A stretch of DNA of 64,000 nt from an uncultured Verrucomicrobiae bacterium (GCA_963718565.1 OY970364.1:1-64000), one strand, 5' to 3'; shown: positions 406 to 63,212, counted from the first letter of the stretch. Numbers and translations: made by a program. The notes: generated from the letters alone by a model not told the origin.

Positions 406-1386
406 ATGCTGATTAGATTGATTTTAAATTGTTTGTTTTTATGTTTTATTTCAATTGCATTTGGCTCTCAATGGCAATTCGAAGAAAAAAATAGAATCAA
501 ATCTGCTCAAGCGGAAAATCGCCCCATTGTCGCAGTGTTTTTAGGAGAGGACTGTCCTTGGTCGAAGAAATTACGCCAAGAAGTTTTAGCATCTCCCTAT
601 TTTCTGGAAAAAATCCATGCAGAAGCCATTCTTTGGATCCATTTTTTGAAGCAACATGAAGAGGAAAAGCCTTTTATTCAAAAATACAAAGTCCAGCAGT
701 GCCCCGTATTTCTTTTGCTCGATCCCAATGGCAAAGAATTCGCTCGCTTCGATTATATCCCGTTAGATGCTCAAGGTTACACCGAAGCGATTATCAGTCA
801 AATCGAAAATTTTCAAGAAATCTGCCTTACTCTTGATCGGGAAGAGATGGATTTTGATGAACGGAAGTGGCAGGAGCTTTATCAAAAAGCAAAAAAGCTA
901 TCCGTCCCTTGCTTTCATCAGGTGATTTTAGAACGCGGGCTACACAAAGAAAAGGGTAATTATTTCCATCTGGAAAAATTCGCAACGCTTCTAGAAAAGT
1001 ATAAAATTAAACATCCCCAAGTGCGCAAAGCAAAACAACAGCTGCTCCATCGAGACCCCGACAATAAGTTCGGGATGCATTTTAGAGTTGCCGTACTCGA
1101 ATTCCAAAAAATCGCCTCGAGGTTTAAAACCAAAGATCAACCTGAAAAGGCCTTAGCTCCACTGTTACAATACATCCATCAATTTGGAAAAAAGGATGTG
1201 GAAAATTATTGGAAGAGTGAGTTGATGATCTCTAAATTTTTGTATGGTAATGAATTCATTCTTCCTGCACTAGAACATGCTGAAGCTGCGTACCTAACAA
1301 GTCCTGAGACAGCCAAACCGCAAATCGCTGAAACGATCTCTTTAATGAGGGAATTGCAAAACTCCTCGCCAGCAGAAAATCGATGA
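406..1386 (+). CDS. Exported thioredoxin-fold protein (CxxS variant); last 12 codons derive from a MITE
   Basis: Signal-peptide-like N-terminus, AQAENRPIVAVFLGEDCPWSKKL and PVFLLLDPNGKEF thioredoxin-like motifs; C-terminal RELQNSSPAENR is encoded by the MITE at 1347. Confidence 0.6.
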   Translation: MLIRLILNCLFLCFISIAFGSQWQFEEKNRIKSAQAENRPIVAVFLGEDCPWSKKLRQEVLASPYFLEKIHAEAILWIHFLKQHEEEKPFIQKYKVQQCPVFLLLDPNGKEFARFDYIPLDAQGYTEAIISQIENFQEICLTLDREEMDFDERKWQELYQKAKKLSVPCFHQVILERGLHKEKGNYFHLEKFATLLEKYKIKHPQVRKAKQQLLHRDPDNKFGMHFRVAVLEFQKIASRFKTKDQPEKALAPLLQYIHQFGKKDVENYWKSELMISKFLYGNEFILPALEHAEAAYLTSPETAKPQIAETISLMRELQNSSPAENR

Positions 1387-1604
1387 TTTTGGCACCTGTT
1401 GCCAGAACCCGCACAGCGGGTTCGGTTGGCGGCGGCGAAAGTATACTTGGATAAGTGGCTGCGAAGACACGAGAAGGTCCGGGGAACCTTCGTAAGTAGC
1501 AAAGCAGGTGAGCGAAGAGCGAACCGGGGCCGAAGGCAGCCGCCGCCAAGGCGACAGGTGCCAAAAGCGCGATTTTATGCGGCGAGGAGTTTTGCAATTC
1601 CCTC
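1347..1604 (+). mobile_element. MITE family A, long form (258 bp)
   Basis: 24-bp TIR GAGGGAATTGCAAAACTCCTCGCC / GGCGAGGAGTTTTGCAATTCCCTC, flanked by TAAT on both sides (4-bp TSD). Confidence 0.9.
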
Positions 1605-1624
1605 TAATGAAACAGAGTTTATAA

Positions 1625-2416
1625 ATGAAATCTACTTGTTGCTGGAAACGGTCAGCAAAAAAGAAATTCGGCGTTCTCTGCGGCGCGGAAAAAACCCAAG
1701 AATGGTTATTGCCATGGTGGTGGTCGCGTTATCGAGAACATAACGATTTTCCAGTGACCTTTTTTGATTTTGGAATGTCTGATGAGATGAAAGCGTGGTG
1801 CGCAGAAAGAGGGGAGCTTTGTTCGATCGAACTAGAACCGCCTTGCATCTTCCCGCGAAGCGCCATTGATCCAGGTCTTGCTAAAGAGTGGGAGCGCCTT
1901 TACGGATGGGTTGTATGGAGCTCGCGCCATATCTGGTTTAAAAAGCCTTTTGCTTTCTTAAATTCTTGTTATGAAAAAACAGTGTGGATCGACTTGGATT
2001 GCGAAATTTTAGGTCCTTTGGATTTTCTTTTTTCTCATTCCGATTCGATATCAGGTCTTGCCCTTGTGCGAGAATATGCTACCGAACATCTGCTTCAGCA
2101 CGATCCTCATGTCCGCTATAATGGAGGGGTGATTGTTTTTCAACATGGTCTGCCGATCATCGAAAAATGGGCAGAAGGTGCGATGACACAAAGTGATCGA
2201 TTTGGCGGAGATGACTTACTTCTGTCTCATCTTATCCATGAGCTTCGATTAAATGTAATGGAGCTTCCAGAAATCTACAATTGGAGAATGGCGCGCGGGC
2301 TCAATCTCAATGCTGTCATCCTGCACTGGCTAGGCAGCGGCGGCAAAGCTTACATCCGCAAGCACGGCGGACTCAAGCCTTCCCTCGACACGTTCTTCCA
2401 CTCCCGGAAAGGTTAA
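1625..2416 (+). CDS. Nucleotide-diphospho-sugar glycosyltransferase (GT-A fold)
   Basis: WFKKPFA, WIDLDCEI (DxD), YNGGVIVF, DDLLL, YNW...ILHW motifs typical of GT8-like enzymes. Confidence 0.65.
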   Translation: MKSTCCWKRSAKKKFGVLCGAEKTQEWLLPWWWSRYREHNDFPVTFFDFGMSDEMKAWCAERGELCSIELEPPCIFPRSAIDPGLAKEWERLYGWVVWSSRHIWFKKPFAFLNSCYEKTVWIDLDCEILGPLDFLFSHSDSISGLALVREYATEHLLQHDPHVRYNGGVIVFQHGLPIIEKWAEGAMTQSDRFGGDDLLLSHLIHELRLNVMELPEIYNWRMARGLNLNAVILHWLGSGGKAYIRKHGGLKPSLDTFFHSRKG

Positions 2417-2598
2417 GAGGGAATTGCAAAACTCCTCGCCAGCAGAAAATTGATGATTTTGGCACCTGTTGCCAGAACCCGCACAGCGGGTTCGGTTGGC
2501 GGCGGCGAAAGCATACTTGGATAAGTAGGAGATCCGCCGCCAAGGCGACAGGTACCAAAAGCGCGATTGTATGTGGCGAAGAGTTTTGCAATTCCCTC
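2417..2598 (+). mobile_element. MITE family A, short form (182 bp)
   Basis: Same TIRs; TTAA on both flanks, the left TTAA includes the stop codon of the upstream gene. Confidence 0.9.
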
Positions 2599-2607
2599 TT
2601 AAAAGAA

Positions 2608-3163
2608 TCAGTCGATGGTTTGCCAGGAGGTGATGCGGATGAGATCTTTGGGGATTTCGAAGAGGAATCGAGAGGGATTTGTGTGGATCTCTTTGCCCAT
2701 TTTTTTCCTTTTGCGGGCCATGCTCAACGTGAGAGACTTTTTTGCGCGGGTCATAGCGACGTACATGAGACGACGTTCTTCCTCGAGGCCGGTCTCCATC
2801 AGGCTTTTTTCATGGGGGATAATGTGATCTTCCAGGCCGATGAGATAACAGGCAGTAAATTCAAGCCCTTTAGCGCTGTGGAAGGTCATCAAGCTGACTT
2901 TATCTTCTTTTTGCGAATTGTCGCGATGAATCCTCCGTTCTTGGTCTAGAAGTGAGGTGCTTAAAAAAGAACTCAATGAAATCTCTTCCTCTTGGCCCAA
3001 GGTAGCTTGTTCTTCTTCATAAATGGCCATTGAGTCAATGCAGTGTGCGACATTTTCCCATTTGAAATCGCGCATTTTTTCAGTTTTTACGTCATCGAGG
3101 ATGGCTTTCTTGTAATCGATTTCGTCGATCAGCCAAGCAAATGTAGGATGAAGAGGCGGCCTT
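2608..3163 (-). pseudogene. Duplicated 3' fragment of uvrD
   Basis: Identical peptide to the UvrD C-terminus; produced by the 614-bp duplication. Confidence 0.75.
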
Positions 3164-3212
3164 AGGTACCAAAAGCGCGATTGTATGTGGCGAAGAGTTT
3201 TGCAATTCCCTC
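3164..3212 (+). mobile_element. MITE family A right-end fragment copied by the tandem duplication
   Basis: Identical to 2550-2598. Confidence 0.85.
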
Positions 3213-3221
3213 TTAAAAGAA

Positions 3222-5258
3222 TCAGTCGATGGTTTGCCAGGAGGTGATGCGGATGAGATCTTTGGGGATTTCGAAGAGGAATCGAGAGGGATTTGTGTGG
3301 ATCTCTTTGCCCATTTTTTTCCTTTTGCGGGCCATGCTCAACGTGAGAGACTTTTTTGCGCGGGTCATAGCGACGTACATGAGACGACGTTCTTCCTCGA
3401 GGCCGGTCTCCATCAGGCTTTTTTCATGGGGGATAATGTGATCTTCCAGGCCGATGAGATAACAGGCAGTAAATTCAAGCCCTTTAGCGCTGTGGAAGGT
3501 CATCAAGCTGACTTTATCTTCTTTTTGCGAATTGTCGCGATGAATCCTCCGTTCTTGGTCTAGAAGTGAGGTGCTTAAAAAAGAACTCAATGAAATCTCT
3601 TCCTCTTGGCCCAAGGTAGCTTGTTCTTCTTCATAAATGGCCATTGAGTCAATGCAGTGTGCGACATTTTCCCATTTGAAATCGCGCATTTTTTCAGTTT
3701 TTACGTCATCGAGGATGGCTTTCTTGTAATCGATTTCGTCGATCAGCCAAGCAAATGTAGGATGAAGAGGCGGCCTTGCGAATTTTAATTGTGCAGTTCT
3801 AATCAGTTCTACAAAGGAGCGAATCCCTGCAAGCGCTTTATCGGAAAGGTCATTTTTTAAACTTGAAGAAAGAGGTAGAGCAATTTCTGTAAGCAAAGTC
3901 CATAAAGGAATGTTGCGCGTTCGGTTGAACTGTGTCAATTGGTCTAAAGAGCGATCGGAGATTCCTCGACGAGGAACATTGATGATGCGAAGCAATGCTT
4001 CTTGGTCGAAAGGATTTGCAATAATGCGAAGGTAGGCGATCAGGTCTTTGATTTCGGCGCGTTCGTAAAATTCAGTTCCGCCAAAAACTTCATAAGGAAT
4101 CCCGCGGACCCATTTGCCCTCCTTTTCCCAAACTGCCTGCATTAAGGCCAATTCCAATGGCCTTGCAAGAATATTTGATCGGTAAAGAACAGCCATTTCA
4201 TTCCAAGGGATCTTTTTTTCTTTGTGTAACTTGATTATGCGTTGGATAATCGATTGCGCCTCATCTAACTCCGTCGGAGCATGAAAAAGTGTGATGAGAT
4301 CTCCACTTTCTGCGGTACTCCACAATTCTTTAGTGTGTCTTTGTTCATTGTTGGCAATGACCGCGTTAGCAGCTTTCAGGATTGTCGGCGTCGAACGATA
4401 ATTTTGTTCGAGTTTGATCACCGTCTCAGACTCGAATTGCAGAATGTTTTTAATCTCGGCACCGCGCCACCCATAAATCGACTGGTCGTCATCGCCGACG
4501 ACGCATAAATTGTTGTGTTTGCTCGAAATCAATTTCGCCAGACGGTACTGAATGGGGTTGGTGTCCTGGTATTCATCGATCATGATGTAACGGTAGCGTT
4601 CCTGATAACGGTCCAACACATCGGAGTGCTCCTCAAACAGCTGAACAGTCAAAGAAAGTAAACTGTCGAAATCGACGGCATTATAGGCGCGCATGCATGT
4701 TTTTAGGCGTTCATAGAGATCGGCGCTAAATTGATCGTGCCATGCTATTTTGTCTTTTGCAATTTCCTCAAATGAAAGGCCACGGCTTTTAGCAAAAGCG
4801 ATTTTATTGAAGGTTTTCTCTAGGGAAGGAAGTTCTCCTTCATGCTCAAGAAGGTGTCGAGCGAGCCCTTGTCCCAAGCGGCGGACATCTTTTTCATCAT
4901 AAAGCGTGAAATTTGAAGTGTAGCCTAATTTAGCAATCTCTTTGCGCAAAACCTGCATACAGAAGCTATGAAATGTGCTTAGCGTTACCTTCTTGGCAGC
5001 TTGATAAGAGACGATTTTGGCAACGCGCTGCCGCATTTCCTGTGCTGCTTTATTAGTGAATGTGAGGCCCAAAATCGCTTCTGGGGAAATTTTTAAATGC
5101 TGCAGCATGTGGGCGATCCGATAAGCGAGCACACTTGTTTTCCCACTGCCAGCTCCTGCAAGGATGAGCACACGGCCTTGCGCCGTCAGCACAGCTCTAC
5201 GTTGGGCGGGGTTAAGGTGGGAAAAAGCTTGTTGACCTGAGTTTTGGGTTTCTTTCAT
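3222..5258 (-). CDS. uvrD: UvrD/Rep/PcrA superfamily 1 DNA helicase
   Basis: AGAGSGKT (motif I), IDEYQDTN (II), VGDDDQSIYGWRGA, QNYRS, TFHSAKGLEF, EERRLMYVAMTRA. Confidence 0.92.
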   Translation of the reverse strand: MKETQNSGQQAFSHLNPAQRRAVLTAQGRVLILAGAGSGKTSVLAYRIAHMLQHLKISPEAILGLTFTNKAAQEMRQRVAKIVSYQAAKKVTLSTFHSFCMQVLRKEIAKLGYTSNFTLYDEKDVRRLGQGLARHLLEHEGELPSLEKTFNKIAFAKSRGLSFEEIAKDKIAWHDQFSADLYERLKTCMRAYNAVDFDSLLSLTVQLFEEHSDVLDRYQERYRYIMIDEYQDTNPIQYRLAKLISSKHNNLCVVGDDDQSIYGWRGAEIKNILQFESETVIKLEQNYRSTPTILKAANAVIANNEQRHTKELWSTAESGDLITLFHAPTELDEAQSIIQRIIKLHKEKKIPWNEMAVLYRSNILARPLELALMQAVWEKEGKWVRGIPYEVFGGTEFYERAEIKDLIAYLRIIANPFDQEALLRIINVPRRGISDRSLDQLTQFNRTRNIPLWTLLTEIALPLSSSLKNDLSDKALAGIRSFVELIRTAQLKFARPPLHPTFAWLIDEIDYKKAILDDVKTEKMRDFKWENVAHCIDSMAIYEEEQATLGQEEEISLSSFLSTSLLDQERRIHRDNSQKEDKVSLMTFHSAKGLEFTACYLIGLEDHIIPHEKSLMETGLEEERRLMYVAMTRAKKSLTLSMARKRKKMGKEIHTNPSRFLFEIPKDLIRITSWQTID

Positions 5259-5295
5259 TCAAAACCTAAAGTTTTGGGTTCCTTTCATAAGTACA

Positions 5296-5554
5296 GAGGG
5301 AATTGCAAAACTCCTCGCCGCATAAAACCGCGCCTTTGGCACCTGTCGCCTTGGCGGCGGCTGCCTTTCGGCCCCGGTTCGCTCTTCGCTCACCTGCTTT
5401 GCTACTTACGAAGGTTCCCCGGACCTTCTCGTGTCTTCGCAGCCACTTATCCAAGCATGCTTTCGCCGCCGCCAACCGAACCCGCTGTGCGGGTTCTGGC
5501 AACAGGTGCCAAAATCATCGATTTTCTGCTGGCGAAGAGTTTTGCAATTCCCTC
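5296..5554 (-). mobile_element. MITE family A, long form, inverted relative to 1347-1604
   Basis: Reverse complement of copy 1 with a few substitutions; TACA on both flanks. Confidence 0.9.
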
Positions 5555-5585
5555 TACAATGAACCAAAAACTCAGGCTCAAAGGA

Positions 5586-6023: not shown

Positions 6024-6037
6024 CTAAAAAATATTTT

Positions 6038-6175
6038 TTAAGCAGTCGTGAGTTTTTTGCGTCCGGAACGGCGACGGCGATTAATGATGGCGCGTCCATC
6101 TTTAGTTTTCATCCGGTTGCGAAATCCGCAGTTTTTTTGGCGCTTTCTCTTGCTGGGTTGGTAAGTGCGTTTCAT
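6038..6175 (-). CDS. rpmH: 50S ribosomal protein L34
   Basis: Hand translation [45 protein letters not shown]. Confidence 0.95.
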
Positions 6176-6219
6176 GGAAGCTTCCTTAAAGTTAAGCGAT
6201 AACAAAATTTGTTGCCGTC

Positions 6220-16006: not shown

Positions 16007-16028
16007 ATACTGCGCCCAGTCTAAAAAC
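16007..16028 (+). repeat. Family C terminal motif (T)ATACTGCGCCCAGTCTAAAAA
   Basis: Same motif at 50928, at 63054, and split by IS607 at 47827/49046. Confidence 0.65.
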
Positions 16029-16029
16029 G

Positions 16030-16341
16030 TTAACGCGAACGCGATTTCTTTCGGCAGAGGAGAGCCATACCCGCTCCAATCACAACGAGGACGATACCTC
16101 CAACCATTAAGAGCATGACGGGTGTATTGTATGAAGAGATTTTGCCCTCCATAGCTCCGCCAACAGCTTGTCCGACTTGACCGCCGACAGAATTGCCAGA
16201 AAATAAACTGGTTCCTTTCTTGACATTTCCTTCAGCTTCAGCAATACGGCCTTTCTGATAATTTGCATAAAGAATAGCAATAATACCAATAATTAAAATG
16301 ACAATGCCAATAATGCGCTTAGTATTCACAATACCCTCCAA
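16030..16341 (-). CDS. Small two-TM membrane protein
   Basis: Hydrophobic N- and C-terminal helices with a Gly-rich linker. Confidence 0.65.
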   Translation of the reverse strand: MEGIVNTKRIIGIVILIIGIIAILYANYQKGRIAEAEGNVKKGTSLFSGNSVGGQVGQAVGGAMEGKISSYNTPVMLLMVGGIVLVVIGAGMALLCRKKSRSR

Positions 16342-20571: not shown

Positions 20572-20665
20572 GAGGGAGTTTTGGTGTAAATAAAAGTGTT
20601 GAGGCTAGGCATTATTTCAATGCCTAGCCTCAACACTTTTATTTACACCCTTTTGCAATTCCCTC
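20572..20665. mobile_element. Family A ends enclosing a different 31-bp perfect hairpin
   Basis: GAGGGAGTTTT-[GGTGTAAATAAAAGTGTTGAGGCTAGGCATT-ATTTC-reverse complement]-CTTTTGCAATTCCCTC; AAAA on both flanks; related copy at 63128. Confidence 0.8.
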
Positions 20666-25134: not shown

Positions 25135-25435
25135 GGGGGAATTACAAAACTCCTTGCCAGCAGAAAATCGATGATTTTGGCACCTGTTGCCAGAACCCGC
25201 ACAGCGGGTTCGGTTGGCGGCGGCGAAAGCATACTTGGATAAGTCGTACGTCCTCAAAAACCTATGGCAAGCACTGAATGTCATTTGGATCCATGCCAGG
25301 CTTTGCATTTATCGATCTCAATCAGGCATGGATCCAAATGGTCTTCAACTTTTGCCATGAGTTTTTAAGGACGTACGATAAGTCTGCGTCTCTGCGTTGA
25401 TCTCATCCTATATTTAAATTTTTTGCAATTCCCTC
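25135..25435 (+). mobile_element. Composite family A element interrupted by a nested family B element
   Basis: A left arm 25135-25245, B insertion, CTGCGTCTCTGCG repeat, then TTTTGCAATTCCCTC. Confidence 0.8.
25246..25376. mobile_element. MITE family B, complete (131 bp)
   Basis: TIR GTACGTCCTCAAAAAC / GTTTTTAAGGACGTAC; 8-bp direct repeat GATAAGTC at 25238-25245 and 25377-25384. Confidence 0.88.
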
Positions 25436-25636: not shown

Positions 25637-25818
25637 GAGGGAATTGCAAAACTCCTCGCCAGCAGAAAATCGATGCTTTTGGCACCTGTTGCCAGAACCC
25701 GCGCAGCGGGTTCGGTTGGCGGTGGCGAAAGCATACTTGGATAAGTAGGAGAGCCGCCGCCAAGGCGATAGGTGCCAAAAGCGCGATTTTATGCGGTGAG
25801 GAGTTTTGCAATTCCCTC
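25637..25818 (+). mobile_element. MITE family A, short form (182 bp)
   Basis: Near-identical to 2417-2598; flanks ACTT/ATTT (imperfect TSD). Confidence 0.9.
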
Positions 25819-27618: not shown

Positions 27619-28209
27619 ATGGATGAGTTTGAGAAATATCTCATTGTCGGATTGGGAAATCCAGGGGAAGCCTATGTGAAAACAAGGCATAACGTTGGAT
27701 TCACTATCGTTCAATCTTTGGCGAGAAAAAACGGCATGGGATTTAAACATACCTCCCATCTGATCGGAGAGATTGCTCAAGGAGAAATTCATGGGAAAAA
27801 AGGGTTGCTGCTACTGCCGATGACTTTTGTGAATTCCAGCGGTGATGCCGTCAGACGCTGCATGGATTATTTTAAAGTACCTCTCGATCACATGATTGTC
27901 GTATGCGATGATATTGCACTTCCTATTACAACCATGAGATTGCGTGGCCAAGGAAGCAGCGGCGGACACAATGGGCTAAAAAGCATCGAAACGCATGTGA
28001 ACACTCAGCACTATGCGCGTCTCAGGATCGGCGTGGGATCTCCTGAGCAAGAAAAGCTGGTCGACTATGTCCTGGGTAAATTCTCTCAAGAAGAGATCAA
28101 AAAGATCGAGGAAATCACAGTCAAAGCAATGGAAGTGTTGGAATTATGGATTGCAGCCGGAATTGCAATGGCAATGCAGACCGCTAACACACAAAAGTTA
28201 GAAACCTGA
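27619..28209 (+). CDS. pth: Peptidyl-tRNA hydrolase
   Basis: LIVGLGNPG...TRHNVGF, GGHNGLKSI, RLRIGVG. Confidence 0.97.
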   Translation: MDEFEKYLIVGLGNPGEAYVKTRHNVGFTIVQSLARKNGMGFKHTSHLIGEIAQGEIHGKKGLLLLPMTFVNSSGDAVRRCMDYFKVPLDHMIVVCDDIALPITTMRLRGQGSSGGHNGLKSIETHVNTQHYARLRIGVGSPEQEKLVDYVLGKFSQEEIKKIEEITVKAMEVLELWIAAGIAMAMQTANTQKLET

Positions 28210-28231
28210 GTTTTGGATTTATTTTATAGTA

Positions 28232-28253
28232 AAGGGAGTTTTGCAATTCCCTC
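28232..28253. mobile_element. Minimal family A relic (22 bp)
   Basis: AAGGGAGTTTTGCAATTCCCTC flanked by AGTA on both sides. Confidence 0.75.
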
Positions 28254-30098: not shown

Positions 30099-30106
30099 CT
30101 TTTGGG

Positions 30107-30222
30107 GTACGTCCTTAAAAACTCATGGCAAAAGTTGAAGACCATTTTGATCCATGCCAAACTTACCACTTATCGATCTTGATTGGGCACGGATCGAAAT
30201 GGTCTTCAACTTTTGCCAGAGT
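30107..30222. mobile_element. MITE family B, right end eroded
   Basis: GTACGTCCTTAAAAACTCATGGCAAAAGTTGAAGACCATTT...AAATGGTCTTCAACTTTTGCCA. Confidence 0.8.
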
Positions 30223-30395
30223 CTTCATTGTCCAGCTCGGTCTGACAATAGGATCTGACCTGGCTTTAGGAAAGGAAGGATCTAAATGGACGAGGTAAAA
30301 TCGTATCATATTTCCAAACACACTGTTGTGGAAGCGTATGCTGGTAAGATTTCTTTCTCTTTGTTAACATTCTAAAAACTCTAAAGGCACAATTC

Positions 30396-34623: not shown

Positions 34624-34695
34624 GAGGGAATTGCAAAACTCCTCGCCGCATAAAATCATCGATTTTCTGCTGACGAGGAGTTTTGCAATTCCCTC
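34624..34695 (-). mobile_element. MITE family A, internally deleted (72 bp)
   Basis: Both 24-bp TIRs retained; TAAA on both flanks. Confidence 0.88.
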
Positions 34696-38405: not shown

Positions 38406-39170
38406 TTAATAACACACACGTTTCAAAATTAAGCCATGCGCAGGGGCGGTGATGCCAGCTAAGGTACGGTCTTTGCTTGCCAAGATCATCGGGATTTGAT
38501 CTGCCTTGATCTTTCCGCATCCCACGTAAGCAAGGGTCCCTGCGATATTACGCGCCATTCTAAATAGAAAATGATCGCCCGTCATACAAATGTTAAGACG
38601 GTTTTCAGAATGAAAGAGAATTTCAGTGTTCTCGATTCGGCAAATCGGATCGCGGTCCCACAGGGAGCGCTCATTGCAAAAGGCCGAAAAATCATAAGTG
38701 CCGATGAGGTATTCTGCGGCTTTTCTCATCTTTTCGATATCTAAAAAATATGGGAAGTGCCAGGAAGTATGACGGAGAAATGGCAGCTGCAAAAATCCAT
38801 GGCAAATCTGATACCTATATTCTTTTTTCACACAAGAAAGCGTGGGATGGAAATCCTCGCGCATCTCTTCAGCGCTGACAACGGCGATTTCTTTAGGGAG
38901 CATTCCGGGGGAATTGCAATTCCCTCTTCCATTTAAACTAGACTGCAAGGACTTTAAACAAAGAACTTTTGAAGTCATGAAATTGACGACTTGTCCTTCG
39001 GCGTGGACTCCCGCATCAGTGCGGCTAGCAGCTTGAAGCTTGATTTCATGTTGAAGGATTTGCCGAAGAGCCTTTTCTAAAGTTTCCTCAATACTCGGCC
39101 CCATTTTGGTTTTTTGCCAACCCACAAAAGAGGCACCGAAATAGGTAATGACGAGTTTAATATTAGACAT
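38406..39170 (-). CDS. truA: tRNA pseudouridine(38-40) synthase with an 8-aa MITE-derived insertion
   Basis: ASRTDAGVHA, GTYDFSAF, FLFRMARNIAG, TAPAHGL; true start MSNIKL overlaps the marC stop (TAATG). Confidence 0.93.
   Translation of the reverse strand: MSNIKLVITYFGASFVGWQKTKMGPSIEETLEKALRQILQHEIKLQAASRTDAGVHAEGQVVNFMTSKVLCLKSLQSSLNGRGNCNSPGMLPKEIAVVSAEEMREDFHPTLSCVKKEYRYQICHGFLQLPFLRHTSWHFPYFLDIEKMRKAAEYLIGTYDFSAFCNERSLWDRDPICRIENTEILFHSENRLNICMTGDHFLFRMARNIAGTLAYVGCGKIKADQIPMILASKDRTLAGITAPAHGLILKRVCY
38907..38926. mobile_element. Minimal family A palindrome inserted in frame in truA
   Basis: GGGGGAATTGCAATTCCCTC flanked by TTCC on both sides; 20+4 = 24 bp. Confidence 0.85.
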
Positions 39171-42832: not shown

Positions 42833-43318
42833 ATGGCGATCTACGATTTCTCGAAAACGGAAAAGAATGACCTTAATGCTTCTACGCTTTGCCAACATCG
42901 CAGTTTTGAAGAAAAAGAATTTTCCGCGGAACCAGAAATGCCCGAAACGCTTCAGAACAGAGTGAAAACACGCGATCGCTTCTTCTCTTCGCTTGCAGCA
43001 CGCTTGTTTTTTTTGTTGCTGCTTGGCGGAAATCTACTTTGGACCTGCTATGCTTTGATCCGATTGTCTTTTTCCTTAATCGGTCGTCTGCTTACAGCAG
43101 ATAAAGTCGCCGTTTTTAAATCTATTGGCGAAAAAGCCTGGGTGTCTTTACTGCGATCCCTTATTTGCGGCGTTTCGTTGTTCTTCGCTTTATTTAGCCC
43201 GGCTTTTGGAATTATGATCGCCTGTACTTACTTTCTGATGTATGACAAATCAGGAATCCAAGAAGTCATTCCTTCCTCACTGCAGTCGCAGTTCAAAGAG
43301 TTTTTCCCGAAAGAGTAG
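42833..43318 (+). CDS. Hypothetical membrane protein
   Basis: 161-aa ORF with hydrophobic segments, directly after sthA. Confidence 0.6.
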   Translation: MAIYDFSKTEKNDLNASTLCQHRSFEEKEFSAEPEMPETLQNRVKTRDRFFSSLAARLFFLLLLGGNLLWTCYALIRLSFSLIGRLLTADKVAVFKSIGEKAWVSLLRSLICGVSLFFALFSPAFGIMIACTYFLMYDKSGIQEVIPSSLQSQFKEFFPKE

Positions 43319-43375
43319 AGGGAATTGCAAGACTAACGACCAAAAAATCACTTTTTGGTCGTTAGTCTTGTAATT
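43318..43375. mobile_element. Family A-type end with a third interior (24-bp stem)
   Basis: GAGGGAATTGCAAGACTAACGACCAAAAA-ATCAC-TTTTTGGTCGTTAGTCTTGTAATT; overlaps the TAG stop, between convergent genes. Confidence 0.7.
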
Positions 43376-43430
43376 GCGTGAAAAATTCTTGGAAAATCCG
43401 CATCTTTTGCAAAAACGAGTCCATAGTTTT

Positions 43431-44035: not shown

Positions 44036-44156
44036 AAAAACCTATGGCAAGCACTGAATGTCATTTGGATCCATGCCAGGCTTTGCATTTATCGATCTCA
44101 ATCAGGCATGGATCAAAATGGTCTTCAACTTTTGCCATGAGTTTTTAAGGACGTAC
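44036..44156. mobile_element. MITE family B, left tip missing
   Basis: Nearly identical to 25256-25376; ends TTTTTAAGGACGTAC. Confidence 0.85.
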
Positions 44157-44225
44157 TTTTTAAGCGATGCCGAACGCGCTTAGCTCAGAGCGCAACACAG
44201 ACAAGAACGGGACAAGAGGATCTCT
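44157..44225 (+). pseudogene. Relic of an IS630-type transposase N-terminus
   Basis: Translates FLSDAERA*LRAQHRQERDKRIS, resembling the start of the IS630 transposase in this window (LSNEQRLYLEQLVKKTRDVNE). Confidence 0.5.
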
Positions 44226-46705: not shown

Positions 46706-47828
46706 ATACTCTAGAAAATTGAAGTCTGGAGAGGATTGAGTTCAATTGTTTGGAAATTGTCGTTAATTCGCTTTTTCAGCATGTCTTTTAAATTAATAAC
46801 GCCAGTGTTGAAAAAATCTCTAATTTTCTCAGTAAATTCATTGAATTTTGAATACAGTGTATTATAAGTAACACACTCTCTCATAACTTTCCATAAACGC
46901 TCAATAGCATTCAAATTTGGGGAATACGGAGGTAAGTAGTGTATTTGAATTTTGGTTTGGCTATCCAAATATTTTTGCACTTCCTTATTCTTGTTTGATC
47001 TGCCGTTGTCTAAGATTAAGTGGATTTTTTTTGCATCTGTATTAGCCGCTAACGTTTGGAGAAAATCGACCGCACTTGCAGCATCCACAGTGCTATATTC
47101 CTTCGTCACGACTTGCATTGCAGTCAATTCAATGGCACCAATAAAATGCAATCGCTCTTGCTTAGCGGTTGTTCCTAATGTCTTTATTTCGTTTTTTAGG
47201 ATCCACCCAGCCACAGACTGGCTCTGATACTCAGGGTGTACAGCATCTCCAAAGAAAATTTTCTCGCCTTCTTGGAGACCGGCTTTCAATTCATTGTATT
47301 TTTTAAGGAACGCAGCTTGTTTTTCGGGATCGAGCTTTCCTGGTACTTTGATTGGATGTTTATAAACAAATCCATGCCTCTTCAACCAATTTGTCATACC
47401 AGCCACAGTGTATTTCACTTGATATGCGTCTAGAACGTAGAGACAAATTTTGCTCATTTTGAGATACGTTATTTGACTCAAATGTCTCCTCAGCGCATCT
47501 TCTTGGTCTAGGGTTAACTTGGAGGCCTTTCCCAAATGTGGATCATTGATAGTTTTTTGCTTGGCATCGTATTCTCTTTGATAATCATAAACGGACGACT
47601 CGCTAATTCTTAAAATCGCCGCTATTTCCCCTGGACTGTGGCAATCATCCCTACCTAAAATGACGCATACACGGTTCCGTTCGTTGACATCTCTTGTTTT
47701 TTTTACAAGCTGTTCTAAATATAAACGCTGCTCATTGGACAACTTTTGCATAGAAGCATTATCCACTATCGCTGAAATATTTTTTAGGGAAATTTAAAAT
47801 TTTACAGAATCCAATCATGAATAGTATA
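46705..47828 (-). mobile_element. IS630-family insertion sequence, apparently intact
   Basis: Imperfect TIRs TATACTCTAGAAAATTGAAGTCTG / CAGAATCCAATCATGAATAGTATA with TA at each end. Confidence 0.88.
46711..47766 (-). CDS. IS630 DDE transposase
   Basis: FFGDAVHP, LILDNG, YLPPYSPNLNAIERLWK; N-terminal HTH. Confidence 0.93.
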   Translation of the reverse strand: MDNASMQKLSNEQRLYLEQLVKKTRDVNERNRVCVILGRDDCHSPGEIAAILRISESSVYDYQREYDAKQKTINDPHLGKASKLTLDQEDALRRHLSQITYLKMSKICLYVLDAYQVKYTVAGMTNWLKRHGFVYKHPIKVPGKLDPEKQAAFLKKYNELKAGLQEGEKIFFGDAVHPEYQSQSVAGWILKNEIKTLGTTAKQERLHFIGAIELTAMQVVTKEYSTVDAASAVDFLQTLAANTDAKKIHLILDNGRSNKNKEVQKYLDSQTKIQIHYLPPYSPNLNAIERLWKVMRECVTYNTLYSKFNEFTEKIRDFFNTGVINLKDMLKKRINDNFQTIELNPLQTSIF

Positions 47829-47845
47829 TACTGCAACCATTATTT

Positions 47846-48379
47846 CTAATTGCGTGGGGTTTTGTCTTTGAGGAGATGTGCTTCGGGTAATTCGAGAGTG
47901 AGGAAGCGGCGCTTGCGGTCCTGGCCCATTCCAAGGGAGAGGAACAAGGCTTTGCCTTGAATCTTGAAACCTTTTTCTGGTTCATCGTAAAAAAGAGAAA
48001 ACCAGTCCCGTTTCCAGGCCCGAAATTTGGGCCAACCCATCTGTTTGCCTTTCCGTTTTCCTTTTTTTGATTTTTGATGAACCCGGATTGCTTCACTAAG
48101 TCTCAAAGCGGTATTTTTTAATGGAGAAGAGTGGACGACTTTTAGAAAGGGGTGCTCTTCCTTGAGTTTTGGAAGTTCATTTCTGAGTCCTCTTTCTGTA
48201 TAGAGGGTCTTTGATGCCTCCGGGTTGCCGGAATGGATAAATTCCCGCTTGAGTTCCAGGCTTTTTTCTAGCAGATGATTATAAAGCCAATTACAGATCC
48301 GCGATTGCCCATCGAGCTCAGAAATTGTTTGAGGGTCTGCTTCAATTCTCAGCTTAAGAACCAGATTCTCTTTAGACAT
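47846..48379 (-). pseudogene. tnpB: Truncated TnpB (HTH and N-terminal part only, no RuvC)
   Basis: CNWLYNHLL, LPKLKEEHPFLKVVHSSPLKN, GWPKFR; stops after about 177 aa. Confidence 0.85.
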
Positions 48380-48992
48380 TGGCGACCGCATTTTGAAGGT
48401 TGGCCAAAAGCTGTTTGTTCTTATGGCTTCTTGAACCATATAGCCTTGCAGAAAAGACGGTAATGATTTCCAAAACGTCTTTGGCAAGTTCCTCCTCGAA
48501 GGAAGGTTCGTCTCCCTGGTTGGTAATCACCACTTCGACATTTTTGACTGCGCAAAGAGAGAAGACAAGCTCTGCTCCGAATCGCAAAAGGCGGTCTTTA
48601 TGCGTGAGAACCAGGCGGCCAATCTCTCCGTTCATAATTTGCTCAAGCAGTTGTTTTAGCCCACGTTTATTATAGTTCATCCCGGAACCGAGGTCTTTGG
48701 TTACTGAAAACACCCATCCTTTTGCAGAGCAGTAAATTTCTAACATATGGACTTGTCGTTGTAAATCTTCTTTTTGATCATGACTCGAAACTCTTGCGTA
48801 GGCAACAGTTAGACGATCAGAGGTTTTATCTCCGCAATTAAATGGCTGTAACTGAGTGAGACTATAGCGGCGTTGGCCGCCCTGTGTGCGATGACAGGGA
48901 ACGATTTTCTTTTGTCTTTCCCATCGGCGGAGTGTTTGTGGAGACACTCCCAAACATTTTGCTGCTTCCTGAATGCTTAAAAACTTGTTCAT
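48372..48992 (-). CDS. tnpA: IS607 serine recombinase transposase TnpA
   Basis: MerR-like HTH (EAAKCLGVSPQTLRRW) before YARVSSHDQKEDL, DLGSGMN, HKDRLLRFG, VFSARLYG. Confidence 0.95.
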   Translation of the reverse strand: MNKFLSIQEAAKCLGVSPQTLRRWERQKKIVPCHRTQGGQRRYSLTQLQPFNCGDKTSDRLTVAYARVSSHDQKEDLQRQVHMLEIYCSAKGWVFSVTKDLGSGMNYNKRGLKQLLEQIMNGEIGRLVLTHKDRLLRFGAELVFSLCAVKNVEVVITNQGDEPSFEEELAKDVLEIITVFSARLYGSRSHKNKQLLANLQNAVANV

Positions 48993-49073: not shown

Positions 49074-49514
49074 CTAAGAGGAGGGCTTGCTTGGTCGTGC
49101 CTTAACGCTGACACCGGAATTAAGATTCACAATCGAGCAAGGATAATCTGGATCTCCGCTAGGGATAATTTTAACAGGAAAAGGAGTGATCCAAATCGCG
49201 GATGTCGGCACATCGCTAGGAGCTATTTCCCAAAGAGAATTGTCCGAAAGTTCGATCTTCTGACCGTTATCAATATTAATGGAAAGGGAGAGTTCAGACT
49301 GCTGGGGTGGTGGCGCTTCTTCTTTAGACTTCAGAACGAAATTCTGATTCAGCCAAGCCTCTAAAGCCGTCTTTTGAGTTCTAGATAAAGTCGCTACCCC
49401 TGTCTTTTTTTGTTCGTCTCGTGACATCACTTCATCGAGGATGATTTGGGCTTGAAGCTGTGACAAAGTCATCACAAACATCGTCAAGAGGAGAGGAAAT
49501 GTTGTATACTGCAT
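49074..49514 (-). CDS. Hypothetical exported protein
   Basis: Signal-peptide-like start MQYTTFPLLLTMFVMTLSQLQA; the longer called start runs into the upstream terminator. Confidence 0.65.
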   Translation of the reverse strand: MQYTTFPLLLTMFVMTLSQLQAQIILDEVMSRDEQKKTGVATLSRTQKTALEAWLNQNFVLKSKEEAPPPQQSELSLSINIDNGQKIELSDNSLWEIAPSDVPTSAIWITPFPVKIIPSGDPDYPCSIVNLNSGVSVKARPSKPSS

Positions 49515-49526
49515 AGCTTTCTCCAG

Positions 49527-49557
49527 AAAAAAACCGCTCACGAGTGTGTGAGCGGTC
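49527..49557 (-). terminator. Intrinsic terminator of porin copy 1
   Basis: ACCGCTCAC/GTGAGCGGT stem followed by T8 on the minus strand. Confidence 0.8.
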
Positions 49558-49581
49558 ATATTCTAAGGGGCTTAAGTAGAG

Positions 49582-50790
49582 TTAGAACGCGAATTCAGCT
49601 CTAAGAGTGAAACCTTGGAAAGAGAGGTTTCCAGGGGCATTGTTATTCATCAAGAAGAAGAAATTGTTCTGATTGAACCAGATTTGATCTTCCCAGCCAG
49701 CGGCAAGTGAAAACATATAAGCGTCATCGCAGAATGCCCACTCGAAGAAGAGGCCAAGCCCGACTTCGAGGACAGCTGTGACATCAAAGATCTTATCTTT
49801 GGTGTTTTCGCTGTTGAACTCTGTGGCCGCAGACGTATTGATTTCTACTTCACGACGTTCATGGAAACGGTTCCACAATGTTGTTACTGCAAAGTCGCCA
49901 TAGCCGCCGAGCCATTTGCAGAAATACCATTGAGTGTCCATACCAGCGCGGAGTCCAACGCCAAATTCCCTTTGTTTGAAGTCGAGTTTGACATTTGATC
50001 CAAGCGGGATCGTAGAAGTTGAAGACGGAACGTCACTTTGATCTCCTATGAATAGGATGTCATCGTATTTGACTTTATACTTCTGGTGCTGCCATGAGAA
50101 TTTCAAGCCGCCAAAAGGTCTCAAAGTCAGAAATTTACTGATGTAAAAATCACGTCCGAGTTCGAGATCGAGGACATTGAAACTGTTCAATCTCCAGTTG
50201 GCCCCCTCTGCACCCATCAGTACAGCTTCTGGGCATGCCGCTGTCGAAAGCCAATAGTCAGACTTAGTAGTGACAGTCTCAACGACGCAGCAATCTTCTT
50301 CTTCTTCATTACTTTCTGCTTTAGAGCGCAGCCATGTGTATTGAGCGTATAAGTCCCAACCGTCATGAGAAAATTTATTGCCGAGGCCGATCTTAAAACC
50401 AGACTCCCATTTAAACTTAGGGCGGAGCACTTCGCCTGAGGTTGCGCTAGCAGGGTTTACTGCTGTGGGAGCATTGGGGACCCCATCATAGGCATAAGCA
50501 AGACCTTCTTCATAAGCTTTCCAGTAGATGTAATCTGCTGTGATGAAAGGATTGAACGATCCATCTGGCTTAGGATTAGCTACAGGAGTGATTTGGTTGT
50601 CACGCCATCTTTGCTCGAACTGCTTTTGGGATTCTGTCTTCTTTTTTTGATTCATCTGATTCTGATTAGACATTTGAGAATTATTGTTTCCATTCCCACT
50701 ACCTTGGCTAATCATGTTATCCACGTCTGCGCAAAGAGGCGCTATTGCTGCGCAGAGCAATGGAATCGTTGTTAGAGAAAATTGCTTCAT
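49582..50790 (-). CDS. MOMP-like / Legionella OMP (Lpg1974-type) outer-membrane beta-barrel porin, copy 1
   Basis: Signal peptide; ADYIYWKA, WESGFKIGLG, DGWDLYAQYTW, LDLELGR, LRPFGGL, AGWEDQIW, C-terminal LRAEFAF. Confidence 0.85.
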   Translation of the reverse strand: MKQFSLTTIPLLCAAIAPLCADVDNMISQGSGNGNNNSQMSNQNQMNQKKKTESQKQFEQRWRDNQITPVANPKPDGSFNPFITADYIYWKAYEEGLAYAYDGVPNAPTAVNPASATSGEVLRPKFKWESGFKIGLGNKFSHDGWDLYAQYTWLRSKAESNEEEEDCCVVETVTTKSDYWLSTAACPEAVLMGAEGANWRLNSFNVLDLELGRDFYISKFLTLRPFGGLKFSWQHQKYKVKYDDILFIGDQSDVPSSTSTIPLGSNVKLDFKQREFGVGLRAGMDTQWYFCKWLGGYGDFAVTTLWNRFHERREVEINTSAATEFNSENTKDKIFDVTAVLEVGLGLFFEWAFCDDAYMFSLAAGWEDQIWFNQNNFFFLMNNNAPGNLSFQGFTLRAEFAF

Positions 50791-50877: not shown

Positions 50878-50928
50878 GAGGGAATTGTAAAACTCCTCGC
50901 CAGCAGAAAATCGATGATTTTGGCACCT
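50878..50928 (+). mobile_element. MITE family A left-end fragment
   Basis: GAGGGAATTGTAAAACTCCTCGCCAGCAGAAAATCGATGATTTTGGCACCT, cut by a family C end. Confidence 0.8.
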
Positions 50929-51080
50929 ATACTGCGCCCAGTCTAAAAATGTGAATTTATGGGGCCATTATAACAGCCCATCTTTGAACGATCGCTCTCT
51001 CCCTTTGCGTCTCTGCGGCTTGGCGTCTTTGCGTTTTCGTCTTTCTGCACTACAATATGGGAGAAAACGCAGAGACGCAA
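50928..51080. repeat. Family C end followed by GCGTCTCTGCG-type palindromic repeats
   Basis: TATACTGCGCCCAGTCTAAAAATGTGAATTTAT, then GCGTCTTTGCGTTTTC...GAAAACGCAGAGACGC inverted pair. Confidence 0.65.
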
Positions 51081-51092
51081 TTGTGCAAAAAC

Positions 51093-51122
51093 AAAAAAAC
51101 CGCTCACGAATGTGTGAGCGGT
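51093..51122 (-). terminator. Intrinsic terminator of porin copy 2
   Basis: Same hairpin and T-tract as 49527-49557. Confidence 0.8.
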
Positions 51123-51147
51123 CATATTCTAAGGGGCTTAAGTAGAG

Positions 51148-52359
51148 TTAGAACGCGAATTCAGCTCTAAGAGTGAAACCTTGGAAAGAGAGGTTTCCAG
51201 GGGCATTGTTATTCATCAAGAAGAAGAAATTGTTCTGATTGAACCAGATTTGATCTTCCCAGCCAGCGGCAAGTGAAAACATATAGGCGTCATCGCAGAA
51301 TGCCCACTCGAAGAAGAGGCCAAGCCCGACTTCGAGGACAGCTGTGACATCAAAGATTTTATCTTTGGTGTTTTCGCTGTTGAACTCTGTGGCCGCAGAC
51401 GTATTGATTTCTACTTCACGACGTTCATGGAAACGGTTCCACAATGTTGTTACTGCAAAGTCGCCATAGCCGCCGAGCCATTTGCAGAAATACCATTGAG
51501 TGTCCATACCAGCGCGGAGCCCAACGCCAAATTCTCTTTGTTTGAAGTCGAGTTTGACATTTGATCCGAGCGGGATTGTAGAAGTTGAAGACGGAACGTC
51601 ACTTTGATCTCCTATGAACAGGATGTCGTTGTATTTGACTTTATACTTCTGGTGCTGCCATGAGAATTTCAAGCCGCCAAAAGGTCTCAAAGTCAGAAAT
51701 TTACTGATGTAAAAATCACGTCCGAGTTCGAGATCGAGGACATTGAAACTGTTCAATCTCCAGTTGGCCCCCTCTGCACCCATTAGTACAGCTTCTGGGC
51801 ATGCCGCCGTCGAAAGCCAATAGTCAGATTTAGTAGTGACAGTCTCAACGACGCAGCAATCTTCTTCTTCTTCATTACTTTCTGCTTTAGAGCGCAGCCA
51901 TGTGTATTGAGCGTATAAGTCCCAACCATCATGAGAAAATTTATTGCCGAGGCCGATCTTAAAACCAGACTCCCATTTAAACTTAGGGCGGAGCACTTCG
52001 CCTGAAGTTGCGCTAGCAGGGTTTACTGCTGTGGGAGCATTGGGAACTCCATCATAGGCATAAGCAAGACCTTCTTCATAAGCTTTCCAGTAGATGTAAT
52101 CTGCTGTGATGAAAGGATTGAACGATCCATCTGGCTTAGGATTAGCTACAGGAGTGATTTGGTTGTCACGCCATCTTTGCTCGAATTGTTTTTGCGATTC
52201 TGTCTTCTTTTTTTGATTCATCTGATTCTGATTAGACATTTGAGAATTATTGCTTCCATTCCCATTACCTTGGCTAATCATGTTATCCACGTTGTCTGCG
52301 CAAAGAGGCGCTATCGCCGCGCAGAGCAATGGGATCGTTGATAGAGAAAATTGCTTCAT
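51148..52359 (-). CDS. MOMP-like / Legionella OMP porin, copy 2
   Basis: Differs from copy 1 by four substitutions and one inserted residue. Confidence 0.85.
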   Translation of the reverse strand: MKQFSLSTIPLLCAAIAPLCADNVDNMISQGNGNGSNNSQMSNQNQMNQKKKTESQKQFEQRWRDNQITPVANPKPDGSFNPFITADYIYWKAYEEGLAYAYDGVPNAPTAVNPASATSGEVLRPKFKWESGFKIGLGNKFSHDGWDLYAQYTWLRSKAESNEEEEDCCVVETVTTKSDYWLSTAACPEAVLMGAEGANWRLNSFNVLDLELGRDFYISKFLTLRPFGGLKFSWQHQKYKVKYNDILFIGDQSDVPSSTSTIPLGSNVKLDFKQREFGVGLRAGMDTQWYFCKWLGGYGDFAVTTLWNRFHERREVEINTSAATEFNSENTKDKIFDVTAVLEVGLGLFFEWAFCDDAYMFSLAAGWEDQIWFNQNNFFFLMNNNAPGNLSFQGFTLRAEFAF

Positions 52360-54031: not shown

Positions 54032-54067
54032 ACCTTAAGAACCTGAATAATGGACTTCTTTTATATT

Positions 54068-58613: not shown

Positions 58614-58624
58614 TTTTTATCCGT

Positions 58625-61828: not shown

Positions 61829-61898
61829 GAATAAATCCTAACACAGGGATCCAATTCCCCAAGGTCACATTGAAATCTATAGAAGAAGATCACTTAGG

Positions 61899-63032
61899 TC
61901 AAGAAGAACTATCGAGCTCTAGCTTGATGGAGATGAGTTTAAAAAGATCTTGGGCGGTTAAAATTCCGACGAGCCGTCTTCCTTTAACTACGAGCAGAAT
62001 CGGCATTTCTGTTTGATTGAGGAGGTCGAGTGCTTCCAAGGCACTTGTTTCTGGGGAGACTGTTTTAAATTCAGAGCTGGGTACCATCACTTCTTTGACT
62101 AGAGTTTTTTTCCGATTTTCGGGAGGAGTTAACTTGACTTCTCTTAAGCTGACATATCCGAGCAGGGTTTCATGTTCCGTGACCGGATAGAGATGATGAT
62201 AGGAATGGTAAACACAATGATCAACGAATTCTTGAATAGAAATGTCTGGAGAGACGCAGATGGGGTTTTTAGTCATAAATTTTTGAACTTTTTCGCCGTG
62301 GAGCTCCTGGGCGATATAATGCTGGGAGCGCGACATCGCGGCCGCTCTTTGCAGAAACAGACCTAGGATGACAAACCAGACCCCAGCGATGAAATTTCCG
62401 GTAATCAGGGAGAAGATGCCCAGAAAAATTAAAATCATCCCAAACCCCGATCCTATTCGCGATGCAACTCTCGTTGCCCATCCGGAATCTTTTTTGATCC
62501 ACCAGAGAATGGAACGGAAGATACGACCTCCATCTAATGGAAATGCGGGAATCAAATTGAAAATGGCGAGCACGATATTGATCAGAGCTAAATAAGCTGT
62601 GACGGCAATCATGGGAACGGGCCAAAAAGAGTGTTGGCCTAAAACCGTTAAAAGATACAACCCTCCTGCGAGGACGACGCTGACAATAGGACCAGCGATT
62701 GCCATCAGAAATTCAACTTTTGGCGTTTGGGGTTCCTTTTTGATTTCGGCAACCCCTCCGAAAACAAATAGAGTAATTTGTGAAATAGGTAATTTATAGT
62801 ATTTGGCAACCATCGCATGGCCCAGTTCGTGCAGGACAATGCATACGAACAGTCCGAGCATTCCAGAGATCCCCATTATCCAATATGTTCCTAAAGAAAA
62901 GTTGGGATAATAGTAGGGGAAGTAGCCAGCGGCAAGTGACCAGGAGAGCAGGATGGCAATTAAAAACCAGCTGAAATCGATACCGATCTTAATGCCCGCT
63001 ATTGAGAGAAAATTAAATCGCCTGCCGAACAT
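61899..63032 (-). CDS. Site-2 protease (M50) with two CBS domains
   Basis: VLHELGH, AIAGP, FNLIPAFPLDGGR; C-terminal CBS pair. Confidence 0.92.
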   Translation of the reverse strand: MFGRRFNFLSIAGIKIGIDFSWFLIAILLSWSLAAGYFPYYYPNFSLGTYWIMGISGMLGLFVCIVLHELGHAMVAKYYKLPISQITLFVFGGVAEIKKEPQTPKVEFLMAIAGPIVSVVLAGGLYLLTVLGQHSFWPVPMIAVTAYLALINIVLAIFNLIPAFPLDGGRIFRSILWWIKKDSGWATRVASRIGSGFGMILIFLGIFSLITGNFIAGVWFVILGLFLQRAAAMSRSQHYIAQELHGEKVQKFMTKNPICVSPDISIQEFVDHCVYHSYHHLYPVTEHETLLGYVSLREVKLTPPENRKKTLVKEVMVPSSEFKTVSPETSALEALDLLNQTEMPILLVVKGRRLVGILTAQDLFKLISIKLELDSSS

Positions 63033-63053
63033 GGTCCTCGCATGTGAAAAAGC

Positions 63054-63071
63054 TATACTGCGCCCAGTCTA
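63054..63071 (+). repeat. Family C terminal motif
   Basis: TATACTGCGCCCAGTCTA. Confidence 0.65.
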
Positions 63072-63127
63072 TTCTTGATGTAGCAGATCTATCAGAGAGA
63101 GTACAGTTTTTTTTGTCCCATTCAAAG

Positions 63128-63212
63128 GAGGGAATTGCAAAAGGGTGTAAATAAAAGTGTTGAGGCTAGGCATTACTTCAATGCCTAGCCTCAACACTAG
63201 TTTTGCAATTCC
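63128..63212. mobile_element. Family A ends with the GTGTTGAGGCTAGGCATT hairpin interior
   Basis: GAGGGAATTGCAAAAGGGTGTAAATAAAAGTGTTGAGGCTAGGCATT...AATGCCTAGCCTCAACACTAGTTTTGCAATTCC; matches 20572-20665. Confidence 0.8.

Follow-up and report, generated by a model that had tools for sequence, protein, structure and literature searches.

Size classes among the Correia/NEMIS elements and ERIC sequences arise by internal deletions or insertions, Correia elements insert at TA targets, and we know of no autonomous parent for either group. [quoted passage not shown] Classical chlamydiae are nearly without repeats. The environmental chlamydia Waddlia, with a genome of 44% G+C, carries 4.9% of it in repeats over 200 bp, and the genome report, in the text excerpted from it, records many repeats but does not describe them (PMC2878342). 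The IS1182-family element ISCaa15, from the amoeba symbiont Amoebophilus asiaticus, is tabulated with 18/18 inverted repeats and 4-bp direct repeats (PMC3196728). Here we describe a family of hairpin MITEs, family A, in a 64,000-nt stretch of DNA (hereafter the window) from a genome labelled as an uncultured Verrucomicrobiae bacterium (GCA_963718565.1 OY970364.1:1-64000). These elements very probably derive from an IS1182-related IS of ~1.56 kb that is common in chlamydia-like and other bacteria of the PVC (Planctomycetes, Verrucomicrobia and Chlamydiae) group. Positions given without a locus name are those of the window, and L-numbers (e.g., L055) denote loci in other genomes.

The repeats of family A are a true transposable MITE family with a 4-bp target duplication. 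When up to two mismatches were allowed, the terminal 15-mer GAGGGAATTGCAAAA matched the window 21 times, 14 of them exactly, against 0.55 on average and 3 at most in dinucleotide-preserving shuffles, none of which (0/100) reached 21. A perfect direct repeat of 4 bp borders seven of the ten two-ended window copies (TAAT, TTAA, TACA, AAAA, AGTA, TAAA, and TTCC); the flanks of the copy at 25637 (ACTT/ATTT) differ by one mismatch, and those at 25135 and 63128 do not match. After pooling the window with other genomes, we found a perfect 4-nt duplication around 17 of 44 two-ended elements, compared with 0–2 of 44 in a control in which the right flank was slid by 1–8 nt. Among the repeat lengths tested on the same 44 elements the best fit was exactly 4 nt, and the duplicated targets are 88% A/T. 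The original prediction had proposed a MITE family with constant ends and a 4-bp duplication on the basis of these same seven flanking 4-mers, all of which are as claimed, and the sizes it listed (258/259, 182, 94, 72, 22, and 20 bp) are likewise correct.

In other respects, too, the copies have the properties of MITEs: they are small (20–301 bp), contain no transposase gene, have inverted ends and a target duplication of fixed length and variable sequence, and share their ends with an autonomous, transposase-encoding element. The terminal inverted repeats are perfect over 17–24 nt in the 258-, 182-, and 72-bp copies, and as DNA hairpins the copies of at least 69 nt are far more stable than their shuffles (z from −7.7 to −18). 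All copies except one are intergenic, several of them lying at gene ends and often right after stop codons. Window copies are mutually 94–98% identical, which points to a fairly recent spread of the family. BLAST of the copies against the window yielded no further copies beyond those already known.

To find the parent element, we took a single genome from each species and scanned it for the 17-mer GAGGGAATTGCAAAACT, the outer 17 bp common to the MITEs and the parent IS. The scan returned at least 97 stretches in 96 loci; the window's own genome was absent among the matches listed. In a Rhabdochlamydiaceae metagenome-assembled genome (MAG), inverted pairs of the 17-mer lie 1575 bp apart at three places. 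The parent IS is 1555–1575 bp long, has the same 17-bp ends as the MITEs, makes 4-bp duplications, and encodes one DDE transposase of 383–390 aa. Copies were recovered at L055 (10001-11575, 1575 bp, duplication AATG), at L072 (duplication TTTT), at L088/L089 (duplication AAGC, or AAGCT if read as 5 bp), and at L065 (121-1675, 1555 bp), the last without matching flanks. A transposase flanked by the same inverted repeats, which the original prediction had recommended searching for, thus exists in other genomes. On the 4-kb contig of L065, a second, unrelated transposase-like open reading frame (ORF; 1657-2895, 412 aa) begins at the IS end, which, together with the unmatched flanks, suggests nested mobile elements.

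The IS and the MITEs occur together in the Rhabdochlamydiaceae MAG (L055, L072, and L088/L089, with the 191-bp L094) and in the MAG nzgw621 (L036 and L050, with L033, L074, and L087). Public metagenomes contain at least 7,954 related proteins (E ≤1e-10), mostly on contigs of 1.5–2 kb, and a plasmid collection held no DNA match for either the 258-bp MITE or the IS. The window itself retains a left-end remnant of the parent IS at 43318-43386 (plus strand), consisting of the terminal repeat and subterminal hairpin with the centre deleted and beginning at the stop codon of the ORF at 42833-43318. Aligned with the left end of the L065 IS, the remnant is 90% identical over positions 1–40 and 98% over positions 73–119, with the hairpin centre missing, from which it appears that a full IS was once present in the window's lineage.

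Both ends of the IS fold into hairpins of ~100 nt, by pairing between the inner part of the terminal repeat and its inverted copy ~100 bp further in. All six IS ends tested, from four IS variants, have this same fold with different stem sequences. Some MITEs are perfect fold-backs of one end (L080, 97 bp; L047, 114 bp), whereas family A and a widespread class of ~164 bp have two unlike arms. In 12 of 13 elements, and also in the window copies, the pentamer GATGA is unpaired at 35–36 nt from one end, and GCGC occupies the matching place on the other arm. A structure alignment of 11 elements of ~164 bp from at least nine assemblies showed that 95% of stem positions pair and that 26 of 57 pairs have compensatory double changes; none of 500 shuffles reached any of the five measures, and slid partners gave 3–13 such pairs. 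The outer 18 pairs, which make up the terminal repeat, are conserved without covariation, and the inner stems covary around fixed bulges. Selection for the hairpin as a functional feature of the IS/MITE lineage across the PVC group is a tentative and rather doubtful reading of this pattern. It could mean that the transposase needs a structured, asymmetric end, or that the elements work at the RNA or DNA level as hairpins tolerated or exploited by the host, e.g., as terminators behind stop codons. We rank an ordinary alternative above both as the most likely: the two arms may have evolved in concert through repair inside the hairpin.

We propose that the transposase of the parent IS would bind the shared ends in trans, cut the target with a 4-bp stagger, and insert the element. 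The MITEs are long hairpins built from IS end sequences. Being near-perfect palindromes, they would be shortened from within, by deletions whose endpoints are short direct repeats placed opposite each other on the stem, with the outer ends and the target duplication retained. Three window copies can be read in this way, each as a full copy from which the DNA separating such repeats is missing. The 72-bp copy (34624-34695, minus strand, flanks TAAA/TAAA) retains ~44 nt from one arm and ~28 nt from the other; its junction falls in an AAAA(Y)C direct repeat and 187 nt have been lost. In the 22-bp copy (28232-28253, minus strand, flanks AGTA/AGTA, 19/19 identical to the family A end), which lies between pth and rpsF, the outer 6 nt of one end, the left-tip GAGGGA, are fused to the other end's last 16 nt, the sequence after GAGGA near the right tip. 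The 20-bp copy (38907-38926, no strand assigned, flanks TTCC/TTCC) is a near-perfect palindrome with 10 nt from each end, in which the two TTGCAA hexamers of the ends have merged. The proposed deletions would thus have used AAAA(Y)C, GAGGGA/GAGGA, and TTGCAA, respectively. In all three forms the 4-bp duplication is intact, and either replication slippage or interrupted gap repair after excision may have given the pattern.

The original prediction of stepwise hairpin collapse holds for these three forms and fails for the remainder of the size series. The 258- and 182-bp forms differ by a 76-nt internal segment that is 87% identical to part of the elements in two other MAGs (L023 and L061); its presence there suggests that the 258-bp form is the older and that the 182-bp form arose by deletion. 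The 94- and 88-bp copies and the 301-bp copy are different or nested constructs outside one simple ladder. Elements in other genomes measure 33, 34, 46, 54–60, 70–100, 114, 152, 157–166, and 180–191 bp, with collapsed forms among them at 33–100 bp.

The 20-bp copy is the one that lies inside a gene. Together with its TTCC duplication it makes a 24-nt, in-frame insert of eight codons in truA, encoding GRGNCNSP, which would be the outcome of one such collapse. Exactly these eight residues are missing from all 12 of the closest TruA relatives (67–83% identity), which read ...SLN-[G/R/F]-MLPKE... without interruption, and alignment with E. coli TruA places gaps at the 8-residue insert as well. The relatives' lack of the eight residues shows that the small palindrome is a true insertion and not a chance sequence.

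The family of the parent IS was judged from its transposase, its ends, and its target. The transposase ORF contains the domains PF05598 (DUF772, 5e-8) and PF01609 (DDE_Tnp_1, 7e-14), and the best NCBIfam IS model is IS1182 (NF033551, transpos_IS1182), which scores 86.7 and 78.6 bits against a curated cut-off of 270. Descent of the MITEs from an IS5-family element of the IS1106 type, as originally predicted, would accord with several facts: both Pfam domains are common to IS5 and IS1182 transposases, the IS5_4 model gives an E of 7.9e-17, the 4-bp duplication is that of the IS5 group, and a 76%-identical protein is called "IS5 family transposase" in one metagenome source. Nevertheless, the IS5 models score only 61.5, 37.1, and 34.5 bits against cut-offs of 140, 110, and 140, all below the IS1182 score. 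The nearest annotated relative, at 44.7% identity over 97% (E 4e-97), is an "IS1182-like element ISUnCu17 family transposase", and all nine annotated relatives above 40% identity (H1–H9; 42.6–44.7% over 97–99% of the protein) go with IS1182, eight being named IS1182 family or ISUnCu17 and one labelled only tnpA. A copy of ISUnCu17 has the ends GAGCCTCTTGCAAAA and GAGCTTCTTGCAAAA, identical to the MITE motif at 11 of 15 positions, and the duplication ATGA, and an Acinetobacter IS1182-family element starts GAGGCACTTGCAAAACTCC; these shared features identify GAG-NNNN-TTGCAAAA ends and a duplication of 4 bp as family traits. Only one of the 17 perfect duplications (TTAA) is a YTAR-type target. From these comparisons with the IS5 models, the annotated relatives, and the IS5-type target, we regard an IS5/IS1106 parent as improbable, and the parent of the MITEs seems best placed in the IS1182 family. 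Mobilization by the window's own IS630-family transposase (46711-47766) would have the attraction that this is the only intact DDE transposase gene in the window and belongs to the classic group of MITE parents. That explanation is the least credible of those considered: the duplication here is 4 bp rather than the TA of IS630, several duplications have no TA at all (AAAA, TTCC, and GAAA), no inverted repeat resembling GAGGGAATTGCAAAA surrounds the IS630 gene, and the full IS with exactly the MITE ends carries a different transposase.

The intergenic position of all copies but one, often directly after stop codons, their strong hairpins, and the compensatory changes that maintain the fold elsewhere would also suit REP/REPIN-like palindromes that a RAYT tyrosine transposase or recombination had spread and that persisted for their use in termination or RNA stability. 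To our knowledge, REP-type elements make no target duplications, which are present here, and the ends of the family are common to a DDE-encoding IS. Nor do the elements match an Rfam family: Rfam over the window gave nothing at gathering score except tRNA-Gln, and a permissive scan of 1300–1650 gave a sole sub-threshold small-RNA match of 22.5 against 81.9 bits. We consider a REP-like origin very unlikely. For the shortest forms there is a further alternative to collapse in place, namely that the 20- and 22-bp copies are the smallest mobile units or excision footprints. Both have intact 4-bp duplications, the 20-bp form has 10 nt of each end, and forms of 33–34 bp recur in other genomes (L033 11272-11305, L048, and L029). 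Yet deletion in place predicts an intact duplication equally well, the junctions fall in direct repeats as deletion predicts, the two forms retain just 6–16 nt of each 17-nt end, and each occurs once in the window. This alternative is unlikely, if less so than the others, and hairpin MITEs derived from the IS1182-related element remain our preferred explanation.

Several observations weigh against that explanation or limit it. A perfect duplication is missing from 27 of the 44 two-ended elements (eight off by one base and 19 by two or more), the L065 copy of the IS lacks matching flanks, and the L088/L089 copy fits 5 bp better than 4. As the original prediction had stated, the window has no parent-type transposase (tblastn with the parent transposase, best E 0.9), and current mobility in the host can therefore not be inferred; among 120 listed transposase clusters (at least 68% identity), none is on a contig of the same size as the one that carries the window's TruA. 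The IS1182 cut-off being missed, the family placement rests on similarity of the ends and on annotated relatives with ~45% identity, and on no curated threshold. Within the size series, the 76-nt indel between the 258- and 182-bp forms has no clear microhomology, the rearranged ends of the "B" variants described below are not derivable by a single step, and mobility of the 20–22-bp forms is indistinguishable from collapse in place. Finally, truA provides the only empty-site comparison, at the protein level, and mobility is read from sequence alone.

Each of the ~13 copies originally listed carries at least one end at its coordinate, and four of them are not simple MITE insertions: the IS remnant at 43318, a tandem duplicate at 3164, a truncated copy at 50878, and a composite at 25135. 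The full-size copy of 258 bp at 1347-1604 (plus strand, flanks TAAT/TAAT) forms a hairpin of −94.1 kcal/mol (z −15.4). It is inserted five codons before the native stop of the ORF at 406-1386, so that the last 13 codons are now MITE-encoded; in-silico excision brings back '...ISLMKQSL*', with the next gene's ATG after it. We rejected the possibility that this ORF and the one at 1625-2416 are a single gene split by the MITE, since excision gives a stop five codons on. The 182-bp copy at 2417-2598 (plus strand, flanks TTAA/TTAA) lacks the 76-nt internal segment and is 98% identical to the 258-bp form over positions 1–110, and its left TTAA includes the TAA stop of the ORF at 1625-2416. A perfect 614-bp tandem duplication (2550-3163 and 3164-3777, 100% identity) begins inside this MITE and ends inside a PcrA/UvrD-type helicase gene, leaving a C-terminal helicase fragment ORF of 155 aa (2608-3075) beside the full gene (3222-5258). 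The "copy" at 3164-3212 (plus strand) is the duplicated right 49 bp of the 2417 element, a product of the tandem duplication and not an independent insertion. A second full-size copy, inverted and 259 bp long (5296-5554, minus strand, flanks TACA/TACA), lies between rnpA and the helicase gene and is 97.7% identical to the 1347 copy. One further 15-mer match, at 4755-4769 (GAGGAAATTGCAAAA, one mismatch), falls within the helicase coding sequence, where it reads Glu-Glu-Ile-Ala-Lys; with neither a partner end nor a duplication, it is probably a coincidence.

The 94-bp "B" variant at 20572-20665 (no strand assigned, flanks AAAA/AAAA) combines the family's right end with a rearranged left end (GAGGGAGTTTTG...), and its interior is a perfect hairpin unlike that of family A. 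The other "B" variant, of 88 bp at 63128-63215 (no strand assigned, flanks unmatched), retains its left end intact; one side of its hairpin is shortened, and its right end (…TTGCAATTCCATT) is degenerate. The 182-bp copy at 25637-25818 (plus strand), with the near-matching flanks given above, starts 15 bp after tRNA-Gln. At 25135-25435 (plus strand) lies the 301-bp composite, whose left 110 bp are family A (97%) and whose short, divergent right part terminates in the family end motif; its outer flanks are AGTA and AAAT. Nested within it at 25245-25377 is a copy of a second palindromic repeat family, with ends CGTACGTCCTYAAAAAC, that also occurs at 30106-30237 and 44036-44157 (four end matches compared with 0.02 expected). 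The nested copy has ATAAGT on either side and may thus represent a further MITE that duplicates 6 bp. At 50878-50928 (plus strand) only the left 51 bp of a family A MITE (98%) are present, cut off where a third repeat, starting ATACTGCGCCCAGTCTA, begins. This third repeat has three exact copies (16007-16033, 50929-50955, and 63055-63081; 0.03 expected), and the one at 50929 adjoins the family A copy and apparently truncates it.

Other mobile or repeated sequences in the window include a cluster of mobile genes at 46711-48992, which contains the IS630-family transposase gene (46711-47766, minus strand), around which clear inverted ends were not found, an IS607-family serine transposase gene (48372-48992), and a short TnpB-like ORF (47846-48487). 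Adjacent paralogous genes of ~400 aa with the Pfam Legionella_OMP domain (49582-50790 and 51148-52359) lie on a duplicated stretch of ~1.2 kb (49509-50744 and 51075-52310), with the truncated 50878 MITE between the two. A 24-nt motif, ACCTGAGTTTTGGGTTTCTTTCAT, is present in five loose copies (75–100%) at 5235-5288, 28204-28227, 30093-30116, and 54041-54064; the helicase gene's ATG and first codons lie within its complement, and tandem repeats of it occur immediately upstream of the 5296 MITE.

The window has a G+C content of 44%, the value given for Waddlia, and the gene content of a chlamydia-like bacterium, including a fused glycine-tRNA ligase of the PRK14908 type, the type III secretion genes sctU, sctV, and sctW, and glgA and malQ. 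Among the matches listed, GAGGGAATTGCAAAACT recurs in numerous MAGs of chlamydiae and in others that carry the labels Verrucomicrobia, Victivallales, and Acidobacteria. Some of these taxon labels seem doubtful: among 21 proteins from seven loci, L035 gave a sub-threshold match to the CT351 family of chlamydial outer-membrane proteins, and L032 (43.5% G+C) encodes a V-type ATPase beside rpoBC. Spread beyond Chlamydiae is firm only within the PVC group. Singleton 17-mer matches in Morganella, Polaribacter, Fusobacterium, and others were taken as chance; we estimate ~70 chance 17-mer matches in 596 Gb on two strands. A MAG labelled Victivallales (55% G+C) has its own subfamilies with the same ends (L038 4036-4225, L062, L076, and L078), among them a 152-bp form, rich in G+C and present at least three times, and a 190-bp form with internal tandem ACAGAATAC repeats.

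The end sequence or its complement, in four overlapping strings, was absent from the literature searched. Searches on IS1182 with Chlamydia gave nothing on the element by title or abstract, those on the IS1182 family, MITEs, and target site duplication gave nothing relevant, and the main text of a MITE census (PMC11602168) contains none of the terms Waddlia, Chlamydi*, Verrucomicrob*, or IS1182. We thus found no description of the family in print, ISfinder not being among the sources compared. Naming the family and its parent IS would explain a good part of the repeats in chlamydia-like bacteria and provide a marker for genome dynamics and strain typing in these organisms. The natural series from 258 bp to a 20-bp palindrome, with the duplication kept, would be useful for studying palindrome decay, and in truA a mobile-element remnant appears to have become eight residues of a housekeeping enzyme. 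Nothing known about how MITEs work is changed by these findings.

Among described ISs, ISUnCu17 and other IS1182 elements (NZ_AP026405.1 and NZ_CP039154.1; NCBI annotation) are closest to the parent IS. Like it, they encode one DDE transposase, of about 370–390 aa and 43–45% identical to the parent's over 97–99% of its length, and ISUnCu17 shares the GAG-NNNN pattern at its ends and a duplication of 4 bp. ISUnCu17 differs from the chlamydial-type IS at 4 of 15 end positions. The chlamydial-type IS has a hairpin of ~100 nt at each end, and its transposase falls below the IS1182 cut-off. ISCaa15, which was compared by its table entry, resembles the parent IS in its inverted repeats and 4-bp direct repeats, but is 1434 bp long with a transposase of 457 aa (PMC3196728), against 1555–1575 bp and 383–390 aa here.

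The truA insert finds its nearest parallel in the Rickettsia palindromic elements (RPEs), which are likewise palindromic repeats inserted in frame in housekeeping genes of an obligate intracellular bacterium (PMC10969869, in the text excerpted). RPEs are ~150 bp long and encode a conserved peptide (PMC10969869), whereas here a single copy, the collapsed one of 20 bp, is intragenic, and clear terminal repeats, target duplications, and a DDE parent set family A apart. Family A resembles the Correia/NEMIS elements of Neisseria and the ERIC sequences of enterobacteria in consisting of short, imperfect palindromes that have terminal inverted repeats, fall into several size classes, and are mostly intergenic. 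Their ends and target differ from those of family A, for which, in contrast to both groups, a probable parent IS is identified here.

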